64,000 bases of DNA from Candidatus Aenigmatarchaeota archaeon. Its GTDB lineage: Archaea > Aenigmatarchaeota > Aenigmatarchaeia > CG10238-14 > SCSR01. Under the pieces are notes generated by a model that saw only the letters and a program-made list of their open reading frames with translations, had not been told where the DNA came from and ran no database searches. Location of the stretch: the NCBI GenBank assembly GCA_016181005.1, contig JACPAE010000001.1, forward strand, positions 179,885 through 243,884, given 5' to 3'. Position numbers and translations under genes: made by a program. This document shows positions 16,185 through 58,041 of this stretch, piece after piece (position 1 is the first letter of the stretch; every line of letters begins with the position of its first letter).

Positions 16185-16469
16185 GTCCTAAACACGTTTA
16201 AAAACTGAGAAATAACTATTATTATCTACGATGTTGTGGTGCAGAATATATGTTGGTGTGAGTTATTCTAACGAGTAAGTGCATACACAACTGCACCGTA
16301 AATAGCTAAATGGTAAGAGACAAATCTAAGTGCTTTCAAGACTTCGTTAGTGGTCATTTCTTCCAAACTTTGTCTATAAGGTACATTTCTAGCATTATTT
16401 ATAAGCAGTCCAGCTAGAGGTATAAAATCCTGAATTTTGTAGTTTCTTCTTAAATCGTAGGACATATGA

Positions 16470-16945
16470 CATAATTCATCTATTAAATATTAAAGATTAG
16501 TATATCATATCCTTCATCACATATTTTCGTGAGTATAATAATTTGCAAATTTCTCATTATCTAGCAGATTCTAAATCGGTAAAATAAGCCGAAATGACGT
16601 AAAATCAGCCTTTTTTAACCTATTAAATACGATAATAAAACATATACTATATTATATATGAAAGAGTGACTAATAAATTTTGCCAAAAATGAGAGAAATC
16701 AAGTATATATTATAAAATATAATAGGGAAAATAGATATTGGTGAGACTTTATCGGTAAGTGAGGGTTAATATAATTAAGAATAAAACATATGTTGTAAAA
16801 TATAAATAGATAGAGATGGACTGTATTATATATTTAAGTGAGGATATGTTTTTGAAGGTAAAACTTTTATCTCTATAACGCCAAAGTGAGAGTTAACCGA
16901 AAAGTATAAAAGTGAGAAAAGCCATATAATAGTATAGAGTGAGAT
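16470..16945. promoter_or_regulatory. AT-rich non-coding region with at least 6 copies of an AAGTGAG(A/G) motif. Candidate promoter or origin-like region.
   Basis: GGTGAGACT at 16740; AAGTGAGGGTT at 16758; AAGTGAGGAT at 16836; AAAGTGAGAGTT at 16883-16894; AAAGTGAGAAAAG at 16908; AGAGTGAGATC at 16935. Confidence 0.5.
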
Positions 16946-16946
16946 C

Positions 16947-40013: not shown

Positions 40014-40140
40014 CGCCCGAAGCGGGATTTGAACCCGCGTTTGCTGTCATAGTTTAATGATCACAGCCGTGACAGGGTTATGCGACAACTCTGCATCCTA
40101 GGCCATTCTCCCAGGTTTAACCTGTCTAGACGATTCGGGC
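40014..40140 (-). tRNA. tRNA-like element: perfect T-arm and 7-bp acceptor helix enclosing 127 nt. Interior does not fold into canonical D or anticodon arms. Either a multi-intron pre-tRNA or a tRNA-derived pseudogene.
   Basis: 5' GCCCGAA ... GCGGG-TTCAAAT-CCCGC-TTCGGGC-G 3'. Internal hairpin CTGTCA-N20-TGACAG. About 50 nt in excess of a mature tRNA. Confidence 0.45.
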
Positions 40141-40188
40141 TTGTTGAATAATAGAATGTGGTTGTTTATAAATTTGAGATAAGAGGTA

Positions 40189-40320
40189 GAAGGACGCAGT
40201 GCAGTTCCCGTGGTCAAGCCACAGTACAAAGCACCACGCTGGAGAGTTTAACTTCCGTGTTCGGATTTCCCTACTTTTAGAGTATATGGGAACGGGTGGA
40301 ACCTCTCCGCTCTGGTCCTT
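40189..40320 (-). rRNA. rrf: 5S rRNA, standalone, with an approximately 21-nt insertion after the CCCAT segment
   Basis: Minus strand reads GGACCAGAGCGGAGAGGTTCCACCCGTTCCCAT[ATACTCTAAAAGTAGGGAAAT]CCGAACACGGAAGTTAAAC...GTACTG...GGGAACTGC...GCGTCCTTC. Universal CCGAACACGGAAGTTAA motif present, and helix I closes via GAAGGAC/GTCCTTC. Confidence 0.8.
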
Positions 40321-40390
40321 CAATAACTTTATGAGGTATTCAATGTTTTTAAACATGTAGTATAACGAATAAATGTTTTGTCATATTTCA

Positions 40391-41013: not shown

Positions 41014-41124
41014 TCCCGAAGGAGAGATTTGAACTCTCAACCTCACCGTATCCGGTAGAGTGCTGATCACTAGCACAATAGTACTAGGCTACAGCGGCGC
41101 GCTCCACCATTGAGCTACTTCGGG
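41014..41124 (-). tRNA. tRNA-Tyr (GTA) with 39-nt intron at canonical 37/38 position
   Basis: CCCGAAG-TA-GCTC-AATGGTG-GAGC-G-CGCCG-CTGTAG[39 nt]A-CGGTG-AGGTT-GAGAG-TTCAAAT-CTCTC-CTTCGGG-A. C1:G72 and A73 are archaeal Tyr identity elements. Intron CTAC pairs with GTAG, consistent with a BHB. Confidence 0.8.
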
Positions 41125-55514: not shown

Positions 55515-56183
55515 TCAGCATTCATTACCATTCCGTATGCCAAACCTGCTAAAATCAGGAATGTTGCCCCTAGTAAAATATTTGAAAGCAGTTTCCCCAG
55601 GTCTTGTAAACAGTATTTTACCATCGTACCCGTCAACAAAGAGCAGTTCTGTATAAGGAGGTTCGTTCCCCCTAAGTTCAACCCTTTGTATGACTAGATC
55701 CAGATAATTATCGTCGTTTGCACGCACAACATAAGATGGCAGATGATAGTAAGGCTCACCATATACACCGCCTCCAAATTCCGCCAGACTTTTTATTTTC
55801 ATTGTGCCATTTGCCGATGTAACACTGAAGACAGTTTTGCCTTCATAACCGCCTGTTACAAATGTTGCCCTGCCCGGCTGGTAATTCACACACCGGGCCC
55901 ACTTATAGAGGGCATTCTCAGGTTCTTGAAGGAACCTTTTAATGTCATTTAATTCGCGTTCGTCTGCCGGGCTTATTGTGGGGCTTATTGTGATTTGTTG
56001 GGTTGCAGAAGTAGTTGGAGACGCCTGCGCAGTTATTTGAGGTTGCGAGTGTCTAGTTGGTGCGTCACGCAATCTTCCAGACAAACTTGACGCGACCGCA
56101 AAAAACATCCCCAGAGAAAGCACTCCAATAATTGCTAACATTTCCAGTATGTTATCCTTGTTGACGTACTTTCCAATAGGCAT
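55515..56183 (-). CDS. Secreted or membrane-anchored hypothetical protein
   Basis: 222 aa. N-terminal TM/signal segment. Confidence 0.35.
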   Translation of the reverse strand: MPIGKYVNKDNILEMLAIIGVLSLGMFFAVASSLSGRLRDAPTRHSQPQITAQASPTTSATQQITISPTISPADERELNDIKRFLQEPENALYKWARCVNYQPGRATFVTGGYEGKTVFSVTSANGTMKIKSLAEFGGGVYGEPYYHLPSYVVRANDDNYLDLVIQRVELRGNEPPYTELLFVDGYDGKILFTRPGETAFKYFTRGNIPDFSRFGIRNGNEC

Positions 56184-56239
56184 GGCCGATCCCTAAACCT
56201 AAAGTGGAAACCAACTTTTATAAATGGTTGGAATATGGC

Positions 56240-56923
56240 TTAATTAACATGTCTGAGCAGTTTAATGCAGTAATTCTTATCTTTTAAAATTTTACAAACA
56301 GATAATGGTACATAATAGAAGATACCTTTACTTAATTTTCCCCATCTTACACGAACTGAATAGTGTTTAGTTAATTTACATTCGTCCACTAAATATGACA
56401 TCAAATCTTCATAGTGATATTGCCAAATAACTCCAGTCTTACCTTTTCTGATAGACCCGTCTCCATCTATCAAACCAGATAAAAATGCAAAGATTTCTTT
56501 TGGTCTGTAAGTTCCGTCCTTCGGAGGAAATTCGTCATGCAAAATTTTAGAATAAACACGTATTACAGTACTTCCTCTATAGAGAGAAATAGTAGGTTTT
56601 AATCCTATTTTTTGTAACAATTCTATAACTCTTTGCGATATATCTTTGTCCCTAGAATGGTCCAAACCAAATTTTATTGTATACTGGTGTTTTTCTTTGA
56701 ATTTACATCCGTCGGCATAATAAAGACCTAATAACCATTCTAGTTCCCACTCCGATAATCTATCAAGATATATTTGTTTAATTCTAGTTCTACTCCTTTT
56801 GTAATAGCTGATTAAAGACTTTCCTACCCTAACTCCAAATTTCTTATAAATAGCACTAGCTAATTCTGAATAGCTTAATTCCTCACTTTTTATAAATTCT
56901 ACAACTTCTTTTGGGTGCATCAT
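56240..56923 (-). CDS. Free-standing double-motif LAGLIDADG homing-endonuclease-like protein
   Basis: 227 aa with two LAGLIDADG motifs: LLGLYYADGC and LSGLIDGDGS. Confidence 0.75.
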   Translation of the reverse strand: MMHPKEVVEFIKSEELSYSELASAIYKKFGVRVGKSLISYYKRSRTRIKQIYLDRLSEWELEWLLGLYYADGCKFKEKHQYTIKFGLDHSRDKDISQRVIELLQKIGLKPTISLYRGSTVIRVYSKILHDEFPPKDGTYRPKEIFAFLSGLIDGDGSIRKGKTGVIWQYHYEDLMSYLVDECKLTKHYSVRVRWGKLSKGIFYYVPLSVCKILKDKNYCIKLLRHVN

Positions 56924-56996
56924 GATAACACCAAATACAATGTCTGTATACTAGAAGTAATAAAGTTAATCCGAGTTCATTTCCCCAGACGTTTAA

Positions 56997-57096
56997 TGGA
57001 CCGGGAGAGATTTGAACTCTCGTCCCCCTGCTTTCTTAGATATACGGAGCAAAGTCGTATAAGACAGGTGCTCCAACCAGACTAAGCTACCGGTCC
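56997..57096 (-). tRNA. tRNA-Ile (TAT) with 25-nt intron at canonical position
   Basis: GGACCGG-TA-GCTT-AGTCTGGTTG-GAGC-A-CCTGT-CTTATA[25 nt]A-GCAGG-GGGAC-GAGAG-TTCAAAT-CTCTC-CCGGTCC-A. TATACG of exon/intron pairs with intron CGTATA. Confidence 0.7.
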
Positions 57097-58041
57097 ATGT
57101 ATTTATATCATTGTGCAATCGATTTATTAATTATGTTCGATAAGACCATCTTGATAAACAAGGTAATAAATGCCCTGCAGGACAACGGCTACGAGACTTT
57201 TGTCACTCACGGCTCTTTCGACATTGTCGCAAGGCAGGACAGGCTGATTCTGATAAAGACTCTGATGAACATAGACAGCCTTGAAGAGTCGCATGCAATG
57301 GACTTGAAAGCTGTTTCCTATTTTCTGTCAGCCCACCCTTTCATAGTTTCAATCAAAAACAACCGGGAGCATCTGAATGATGAGACAGTCTATTCAAGGT
57401 TCGACGTGCCTGTCGTCACGCCCAAATTAATGAGGGTAATGCTAGAAGACGACGAATTGGTAGTCTCGCACTCTTCAAAGGGAAGGCACACGCAGGAAAT
57501 CAACACTTTTACCTTGAAGGAGAAAAGGAAGGAATTGGGCTATACCTTGCAAGTTCTTGCAAAGCAGATCGGGATTTCCAAGAAGGCGATGTACGAGATT
57601 GAAAAGAAGAGGGTGAATCCGCAGAGAGAGAATGCACATGCATTAGAGCGGCTGTTGGGAACAGAGCTGGCATTGCCATATGAGATGAAATTTGAAGAGC
57701 CTACCTATATCAGGCCAAAAACAGTTTTCCAGAAGATTGTCAGCAGGGAGTTCGCAAGGCTGGGAATAGACAATTCAACTGTCAGGTCAGCGCCCTTCGA
57801 AATTATCGGAAGGGAAAGTTTCTCTATTATCACCAATTTGTCAACAACACCTTCAGAGATTAAAAAGGAGATTGAAGAAGTGAGGGGTCTGGCAAATGTG
57901 TTCTCGTCAAAGACAGTTCTTATTTCCAAGAGATATGTGAGGACTTGTGTCGAGGGCATACCTGTCGTCTCGGAGCAGGAACTGTCAGAGTTGCAGTCGT
58001 CGAAAGAGCTGTCCGAAATTATAGATGAAAGGACTTACTAA
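57097..58041 (+). CDS. COG1395-like archaeal transcriptional regulator with XRE-type HTH
   Basis: 314 aa. HTH LGYTLQVLAKQIGISKKAMYEIEKKR. True start is probably the internal MFDKTILINK. Confidence 0.55.
   Translation: MYLYHCAIDLLIMFDKTILINKVINALQDNGYETFVTHGSFDIVARQDRLILIKTLMNIDSLEESHAMDLKAVSYFLSAHPFIVSIKNNREHLNDETVYSRFDVPVVTPKLMRVMLEDDELVVSHSSKGRHTQEINTFTLKEKRKELGYTLQVLAKQIGISKKAMYEIEKKRVNPQRENAHALERLLGTELALPYEMKFEEPTYIRPKTVFQKIVSREFARLGIDNSTVRSAPFEIIGRESFSIITNLSTTPSEIKKEIEEVRGLANVFSSKTVLISKRYVRTCVEGIPVVSEQELSELQSSKELSEIIDERTY

Follow-up and report, generated by a model that had tools for sequence, protein, structure and literature searches.

Why should the gene of a LAGLIDADG endonuclease stand directly behind a tRNA gene in an archaeal chromosome? 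The question is raised by a 227-residue open reading frame (ORF) in the window, that is, the 64,000-nucleotide (nt) stretch of contig JACPAE010000001.1 from a Candidatus Aenigmatarchaeota archaeon that was analysed here as a whole. The original prediction described this ORF as a free-standing double-LAGLIDADG endonuclease gene located 77 nt downstream of an intron-bearing tRNA-Ile and ahead of a COG1395 gene. It suggested that the gene might be either mobile or domesticated and that its target, or the intron that once hosted it, might lie close by, and recommended a search for intron-plus and intron-less alleles of neighbouring genes in related genomes. Our comparisons favour, with a probability of about 0.7, a selfish free-standing homing-endonuclease gene carried by a cassette of about 0.75 kb, which would have inserted 9-10 bp downstream of tRNA-Ile(UAU) and would home to the flanks of tRNA genes.

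An apparent insertion at the tRNA-Ile(UAU) locus

Four related loci (L016, L106, L107 and L108) display the order CCA-adding enzyme, metallo-beta-lactamase-fold protein, ArsP permease, tRNA-Ile(UAU), COG1395 and thermosome, with no endonuclease. Their COG1395 proteins are 74% (L106), 70% (L107), 69% (L108) and 65% (L016) identical to that of the window, whose locus finds its best relative of the genome collection in an Aenigmatarchaeota metagenome-assembled genome. NCBI likewise assigns the neighbouring proteins to a Candidatus Aenigmarchaeota metagenome-assembled genome. The tRNA-Ile of L016 scores below the Rfam gathering threshold because it contains two introns. At L109, a divergent COG1395 gene and a tRNA-Ile(UAU) are followed, after 66 nt, by an endonuclease gene whose product is 52% identical to that of the window, and the two proteins are sisters in the family tree. 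The endonuclease is absent from four of the six closely related tRNA-Ile loci, the flanks being conserved.

Comparison of the window with L106 placed the break precisely on one side. The two sequences are 95% identical from 57140 to 56988, that is, from the start of COG1395 through the tRNA, and the similarity ends 9-10 nt past the tRNA 3′ end. Beyond this point, L106 runs straight into a gene for a 192-residue protein weakly homologous to the 222-residue orphan protein of the window. Because the homology breaks there, the inserted block corresponds approximately to the endonuclease gene and its leader. The right-hand alignment with L106 dissolves into noise, since the genes of the 222- and 192-residue proteins are only 37% identical locally.

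Base composition marks the same segment. The endonuclease gene has a G+C content (GC) of 31.1%, compared with 42.6 ± 4.8% for window stretches of equal size, of which only 1% are as low. The neighbouring genes have a GC of 44-48%, and the trough coincides with the cassette. In relatives as well, the flanks were richer in GC than the endonuclease gene at 10/10 loci. Taken together, these comparisons indicate that the window gene is an insertion beside tRNA-Ile. A CCATT(T/A)A duplication, seen by eye at the window cassette, was discounted as too short.

A double-motif LAGLIDADG protein with an additional N-terminal module

The Pfam family LAGLIDADG_3 matched the 227-residue protein with 40.6 bits (E=3.2e-10), above its curated cut-off of 22.5. 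A weak Hom_end match also covers the second motif, and no Hint or intein domain was matched in the Pfam scan. The sole match in a sequence search of the PDB was E-DreI, a chimera of I-DmoI and I-CreI. An AlphaFold (AF2) model, obtained from an alignment of 25 family sequences, reached a mean predicted local distance difference test score (pLDDT) of 92.3. In this model, a three-helix N-terminal unit (residues 5-43) precedes two alpha-beta-beta-alpha-beta-beta-alpha halves, each headed by a LAGLIDADG motif and starting with helices 58-71 and 144-155, respectively. At E~1e-7, a Foldseek comparison of the model with the PDB found PI-SceI and several dozen structures of I-DmoI; I-SceI was matched too. 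I-DmoI was the best monomeric match, with a template-modelling (TM) score of ~0.6 when normalised to I-DmoI.

Both catalytic aspartates, D71 and D155, are invariant in the 25 sequences of the first alignment and in the 30 of a dereplicated one. In the first motif, G66 and G72 are likewise invariant in both alignments, while A70 is invariant in the first and found in 29/30 sequences of the second. The second motif is invariant at G154, D155 and G156, and Q168 is conserved in 30/30 sequences. The protein is therefore predicted to be a single-chain, double-motif LAGLIDADG endonuclease with intact catalytic residues and an active-looking site. Since the gene has its own start and stop codons, stand-alone relatives of 216-250 residues, no Hint match and a complete tRNA upstream, it is neither intronic nor part of an intein. 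Both the nature of the protein and its free-standing character had been correctly anticipated. Public gene calls start the protein at the second methionine, giving 226 residues.

The N-terminal domain has no match in Pfam or NCBIfam. Modelled alone from its single sequence, it gave a pLDDT of 76 and only Foldseek matches with E>1, several of them to repressors or transposase domains of the helix-turn-helix (HTH) type. It may thus be called HTH-like in its three-helix form only, and is presumed to be an extra DNA-binding module.

A small family whose members adjoin tRNA genes

Among 5.8 billion proteins, 25 relatives of the endonuclease were found, nearly all of them unnamed, metagenomic proteins of 210-260 residues. 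A profile search of 1.84 billion representatives reached 124 clusters at E<=1e-10, of which only 16 passed E<=1e-30. Across the family alignment, the N-terminal module with its KSxISYYKR motif is conserved and the core GLYYADG...GLIDGDG is invariant. A viral origin was not supported: tblastn gave no match in 50,697 phage records, and IMG/VR contained only distant matches (<=35% identity to the core), which, where re-examined, lay inside ORFs of 800-900 residues.

The genomic contexts of the relatives were gathered from look-ups and a metagenome scan. As ARAGORN with default settings and the Rfam gathering threshold miss multi-intron tRNAs, we added a finder based on the pairing of the T-arm and acceptor stem, which detected every Rfam tRNA of the window as well as two others, and had 0 hits when run on 1.25 Mb of shuffled sequence. 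A tRNA gene was found 0-89 nt away from the endonuclease ORF, or overlapping its end, in 30/30 dereplicated members (Table 1). Chance adjacency is excluded because other tRNAs occur only about once per 25 kb on the same contigs. Applied to distant LAGLIDADG matches, namely inteins in proteins of 800-1300 residues with <=35% identity, the same finder revealed no adjoining tRNA.

Table 1. tRNA genes adjoining the endonuclease genes of the family
tRNA	Location as seen from the endonuclease gene	Loci
Ile(UAU)	upstream, 66-73 nt	window, L109
Lys(UUU)	upstream, 85-89 nt	L007, L010/L028
Lys(UUU)	downstream, 18-37 nt	L012, L034, L035
Lys(CUU)	downstream, 1-33 nt, or overlapping the ORF end (L027)	L005, L014, L027, L031, L032, L110
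Asn(GUU)	convergent, ORF end overlapped	L039, L041, L042, L044
Tyr(GUA, C1-G72)	convergent, ORF end overlapped	L036, L040, L043, L045, L046, L048, L053; same arrangement in L047, L054 and L055, which were left out of the tree
Thr(CGU)	8 nt downstream	L052
CAU or Lys(UUU)	abutting	shorter subfamily of ~185 residues: L057, L060, L062, L067, L068

In a neighbour-joining tree, the endonucleases group by tRNA identity and geometry. The family, as delineated by these searches, is small and archaeal, and each of its clades appears to keep to a single tRNA gene and a single geometry. At the S8e-LSm-L37e locus, the endonuclease gene follows tRNA-Lys in L007 and L010 and precedes it in L012. A DUF5654 gene also recurs near the pair formed by tRNA-Lys and the endonuclease, upstream of the endonuclease in L005, L014 and L015 and downstream of the tRNA in L012, which probably reflects conserved host synteny around tRNA-Lys.

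Duplicated tRNA ends and decayed copies

In the Tyr clade, the endonuclease ORF has no stop codon of its own and reads into the antisense strand of the tRNA 3′ exon, so that the C-terminus ...GRAGRI of the L048 protein is encoded by the acceptor and T-stem of tRNA-Tyr. A second copy of the tRNA end, 17-23 nt long and comprising the T-loop, the 3′ strands of the T-stem and acceptor stem, and ACCA, is located across the cassette, 0.2-1.1 kb away. In L052, a truncated 5′ half of tRNA-Thr (to about position 39) is followed by the endonuclease and then by an intact, intron-less tRNA-Thr. We read these repeats as marks of a tRNA 3′ region serving as the entry site, where the duplicated end would keep the host gene functional. 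An endonuclease residing inside a giant tRNA intron at 59/60, considered for L053, L040 and other Tyr-clade members, was rejected, since the tRNA is complete: its 3′ exon is contained in the final 10-25 nt of the ORF, on the strand opposite to it.

Interrupted copies of the endonuclease gene were observed in the soil contigs L063-L066 (about 3004-3530 in L063). They stop after 116 codons, their second motif, GLFDGDG, is out of frame, and a copy of the tRNA-Tyr 3′ end is found upstream. Such copies fit the cycle of invasion and decay of homing endonuclease genes.

In L048 (1996-2913, plus strand), and also in L043, L047 and L049, a 305-residue protein is encoded between the upstream tRNA-Tyr 3′-end repeat and the endonuclease, as a second cargo gene of the cassette. 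It presents a PD-(D/E)XK-like motif (FDVVGY...YVVECKKG) and a weak DUF5655 match and, like the endonuclease, begins with MPRLP.

Repeats of tRNA fragments in this geometry are a hallmark of integrase-mediated insertion into tRNA genes (PMC3293823). The endonuclease could accordingly be the cargo or remnant of an integrase-mediated element of the SSV or pNOB8 type that used the tRNA as its attachment site, in which case the association with tRNAs would not be caused by the endonuclease. Such an origin would account for the direct repeats flanking the Tyr- and Thr-clade cassettes and for the presence of a second gene within the repeat-bounded segment of L048 and its relatives; the arrangement is classic for archaeal integrases, as in Caldiarchaeum, where a tRNA-Thr fragment occurs with a recombinase (PMC3293823). 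However, no integrase was detected in the window insertion or in any relative cassette examined, and the cassettes of the family measure only 0.75-1.8 kb. Moreover, it is invariably the endonuclease gene that directly abuts the tRNA, over seven anticodon types, the endonuclease clades follow tRNA identity, as expected if the endonuclease sets the site, and the window cassette lacks a tRNA-derived repeat. We consider this origin unlikely.

Domestication and tRNA introns

Domesticated LAGLIDADG proteins exist, WhiA and the intron maturases being examples. The family could similarly consist of non-homing proteins, acting either as DNA-binding regulators of tRNA transcription or as helpers in the maturation of multi-intron pre-tRNAs. 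The N-terminal helical module kept across the family, the tight association with tRNAs, often on the same strand and compatible with co-transcription, and the 1-4 introns usually present in the adjoining tRNAs would all agree with such a role. Unlike in WhiA-type proteins, however, both catalytic aspartates are invariant. The gene is also missing from most of the related tRNA-Ile loci, is low in GC and is found in interrupted copies; only one tRNA per contig is accompanied, though many tRNAs of these genomes have introns; and the 16 clusters recovered at the stricter threshold make the family rare. A domesticated function therefore seems very unlikely.

The introns themselves suggest another possibility. 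Introns, 1-4 in each and often 2-4, were identified in 29/30 endonuclease-adjacent tRNAs (lengths 99-215 nt), an unusually high frequency given that roughly half of the remaining tRNAs of these contigs contain none. In collaborative homing, for which cyanophage psbA with F-CphI reportedly offers a precedent, the endonuclease would cleave tRNA genes that lack introns or are interrupted differently, the introns would break the recognition site and confer immunity, and both would spread together. The Tyr-clade introns at 53/54 and 59/60 do fall in the T-arm region that is duplicated at the far end of the cassette. Yet the tRNA-Ile introns are the same with and without the gene, those of the window and of the endonuclease-free L106 having the same length and a single base difference, and those of L109 being the same as in L107 and L108, which lack the gene. 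A tRNA intron as the immunity determinant at the tRNA-Ile locus was accordingly rejected. In addition, the tRNA-Thr of L052 is intron-less, intron positions differ by clade, and the intron enrichment is confounded by tRNA identity. Collaborative homing is hardly probable in our view.

Proposed homing to tRNA-gene flanks

The preferred reading remains that of a selfish gene homing to tRNA-gene flanks, for which we propose a mechanism modelled by analogy on the free-standing homing endonucleases of phage T4. The endonuclease would cut alleles devoid of the gene in or beside the conserved tRNA 3′ region. The break would then be repaired by recombination from the gene-carrying allele, thereby copying the cassette and, probably, the adjoining tRNA allele along with it. 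The insertion, or sequence differences around it, would render the host's own site uncleavable. In such a scheme, the tRNA gene would provide a well-conserved landmark, and a position just outside it, or a duplicated replacement end, would spare the host. What the comparisons establish is the identity and fold of the protein, its intact catalytic residues, the insertion polymorphism and the association of the whole family with tRNA genes; that the enzyme cleaves DNA, where it would do so and that the gene homes are inferred.

Several points weigh against this scheme. The whole case rests on comparative sequence, and tRNA genes are general hotspots for other mobile elements too. Loci within a clade may be orthologous by descent, so that the independent tRNA associations number at least 8-9 rather than 30. 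The arrangement of the gene and the tRNA varies (upstream, downstream or convergent overlap), and no single target position can be read from it. At the window locus, the right junction is only approximate, falling in the stretch that separates the stop codon at 56240 from the promoter of the gene of the 222-residue protein, and within the window no flanking repeat of the cassette was above chance and none was derived from the tRNA. Finally, the closest relatives at the same locus are just 52% identical, which does not point to a recent transfer between these lineages.

With regard to the alternatives left by the original prediction, mobility is supported by the four empty sites, the occupied L109 locus, the sharp break in homology and the low GC, while domestication is disfavoured by the invariant aspartates, the patchy distribution and the decayed copies. 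A nearby target received indirect support, every relative examined adjoining a tRNA. A former host intron did not, no relative being found inside an intron and the tRNA-Ile intron being nearly unchanged in the endonuclease-free L106. Endonuclease-less alleles were present in related genomes, with the same tRNA-Ile introns as in the alleles that carry the gene (window versus L106, and L109 versus L107 and L108).

A broader and doubtful extension would see the family as an integrase-independent agent of archaeal tRNA gene remodelling, which, by cutting tRNA genes that are then repaired from donors, would move entire tRNA alleles and their introns between lineages and leave duplicated or truncated tRNA ends behind. 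If true, it would provide a concrete answer to how non-canonical tRNA introns and fragmented tRNA genes have spread, which has so far lacked an explanation.

Local organisation of the locus and other features of the window

The features of the window are listed in Table 2. The intron-bearing tRNA-Ile(UAU) lies, as predicted, upstream of the endonuclease gene on the same strand; it was not detected by ARAGORN without its intron mode. It is presumed to be the resident gene that anchors the insertion and serves as the recognition landmark. The gap between its 3′ end and the endonuclease ATG amounts to 73 nt instead of the 77 first given. The COG1395 gene is indeed close by; the endonuclease gene does not, however, stand between it and the tRNA, the order on the plus strand being endonuclease, tRNA and COG1395. 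Within the spacer, a hairpin is accompanied by a T-run, and an AT-rich, TATA-like stretch, CTTTATTAC, located ~40 nt ahead of the endonuclease ATG, may act as a promoter.

Table 2. Coordinates of the features discussed
Feature	Position	Strand	Description
Endonuclease ORF	56240..56923	minus	227 aa; own start and stop codons; predicted free-standing LAGLIDADG homing-endonuclease gene
LAGLIDADG motif 1	56705..56734	minus	LLGLYYADGC, residues 64-73, catalytic D71 (by translation)
LAGLIDADG motif 2	56453..56482	minus	LSGLIDGDGS, residues 148-157, catalytic D155 (by translation)
N-terminal three-helix domain	56753..56923	minus	~57 residues; helices 5-13, 18-29, 35-43; conserved KSxISYYKR motif
Inserted cassette, approximate	56227..56987	minus	~0.75 kb; endonuclease and ~60 nt leader; left junction 56987/56988 defined
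Spacer between tRNA and endonuclease	56924..56996	minus	73 nt; first 9-10 nt common with the empty allele, remainder inserted cassette
Hairpin in spacer	56990-56969		accompanied by a T-run
tRNA-Ile(UAU)	57096..56997	minus	Rfam tRNA, 55.4 bits, full model; anticodon loop CUUAUA
Intron of tRNA-Ile(UAU)	about 57033-57057		~25-nt insertion at the canonical 37/38 position; only intron
COG1395 gene	57133-58041	plus	divergent, beyond the tRNA
Orphan gene	55515-56183	minus	222 aa; directly downstream of the endonuclease; N-terminal hydrophobic helix, no Pfam match
Interrupted tRNA	92-194	minus	missed by ARAGORN and the Rfam gathering threshold; seen only by T-arm/acceptor pairing
Interrupted tRNA	40015-40140	minus	missed by ARAGORN and the Rfam gathering threshold; seen only by T-arm/acceptor pairing
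Interrupted tRNA	41014-41124	minus	
5S rRNA	40186-40323	minus	Rfam, 64.6 bits; 23 nt instead of 3 in the model, in the loop after ...CCCAU
Low-GC region	16185-16946		~760 nt; lowest GC of the window (about 28%); no ORF >=80 aa

The 222-residue orphan protein has a single relative besides an identical database copy, namely the 192-residue protein of L106, encoded at the same position. Its inclusion in the element was rejected on the basis of a host-like GC of 44% and of this weak homologue at the same place in the empty L106 locus, and its gene is treated as a resident orphan.

The UAU anticodon is rare for isoleucine in Archaea, where AUA is normally read by an agmatidine-modified CAU tRNA, and tRNA-Ile(UAU) has been reported for Nanoarchaeum and Korarchaeum. 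It stands next to COG1395 in six Aenigmarchaeota loci (the window, L016, L106, L107, L108 and L109), with two intron patterns.

Including tRNA-Ile(UAU), four of the five tRNAs of the window are interrupted. The extra ~20 nt of the 5S rRNA could be a small intron-like element or an expansion, and the low-GC region may be a decayed insertion or else a long intergenic or regulatory stretch.

Novelty and significance

Free-standing homing endonucleases have been studied thoroughly in phages, and in archaea LAGLIDADG enzymes have been described in rRNA introns and inteins. Neither the protein fold nor free-standing homing as a concept is new. The apparent novelty lies in a LAGLIDADG family that carries an additional N-terminal module and whose clades are each specialised on the flanks of particular tRNA genes in archaeal chromosomes, sometimes with duplicated tRNA ends; our literature search found no description of a LAGLIDADG family systematically located at tRNA-gene flanks in the chromosomes of cellular archaea. 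Should these enzymes recognise tRNA genes, they would constitute natural, clade-specific nucleases for highly conserved targets and a possible driver of horizontal tRNA allele replacement, and would provide a testable link to the heavy interruption and fragmentation of archaeal tRNA genes. For annotation, the endonuclease gene flags a recent insertion, and the adjoining multi-intron tRNAs escape standard tRNA finders.

Comparison with known systems

The enzymes of the I-DmoI class (I-DmoI, I-PorI and I-ApeI) share with the window protein a monomeric, two-motif LAGLIDADG fold with an acidic residue ending each motif. Their genes lie in the sense orientation inside the bulge-helix-bulge introns of rRNA genes, whereas that of the window is free-standing, intergenic and beside a tRNA gene. 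The window protein also differs by its extra N-terminal helical domain and by an identity of only ~18-20%. Assignment to the intron-encoded class would not suit an ORF outside a tRNA gene whose intron measures only ~25 nt, nor would the intein class suit a 227-residue protein matched by LAGLIDADG_3 and weakly by Hom_end only. Retention of the catalytic aspartates, together with a patchy distribution and the rarity of the family, likewise separates it from the WhiA-like class.

Integrase insertions of the SSV and pNOB8 types, like that at the tRNA-Thr of Caldiarchaeum, also occur at tRNA genes, and some family relatives resemble them in having a reconstituted tRNA and, beyond the element, a directly repeated tRNA fragment (PMC3293823). 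In contrast to the integrase-borne class, the repeats of the Tyr and Thr clades come without an accompanying integrase, the family cassettes are ~1 kb in size, a LAGLIDADG endonuclease touches the tRNA, and the window copy is repeat-free. As with F-CphI and psbA, a free-standing endonuclease is located beside a gene whose intron contains no endonuclease, but the intron difference between alleles that defines collaborative homing is not seen at the tRNA-Ile locus.

The closest functional analogue is SegB of phage T4, a free-standing GIY-YIG endonuclease encoded in the phage tRNA gene cluster, whose 27-bp recognition site includes the T-psi-C stem-loop motif and which drives the preferential inheritance of itself and of neighbouring tRNA genes (PMC2330249). 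SegB is a phage enzyme of experimentally shown activity, whereas the window gene is of the LAGLIDADG type, resides in a cellular archaeal chromosome and is known from its sequence alone. What places the window gene with the free-standing endonucleases is its location outside any intron or intein and its presence (window and L109) or absence (L016, L106, L107 and L108) at a fixed site.

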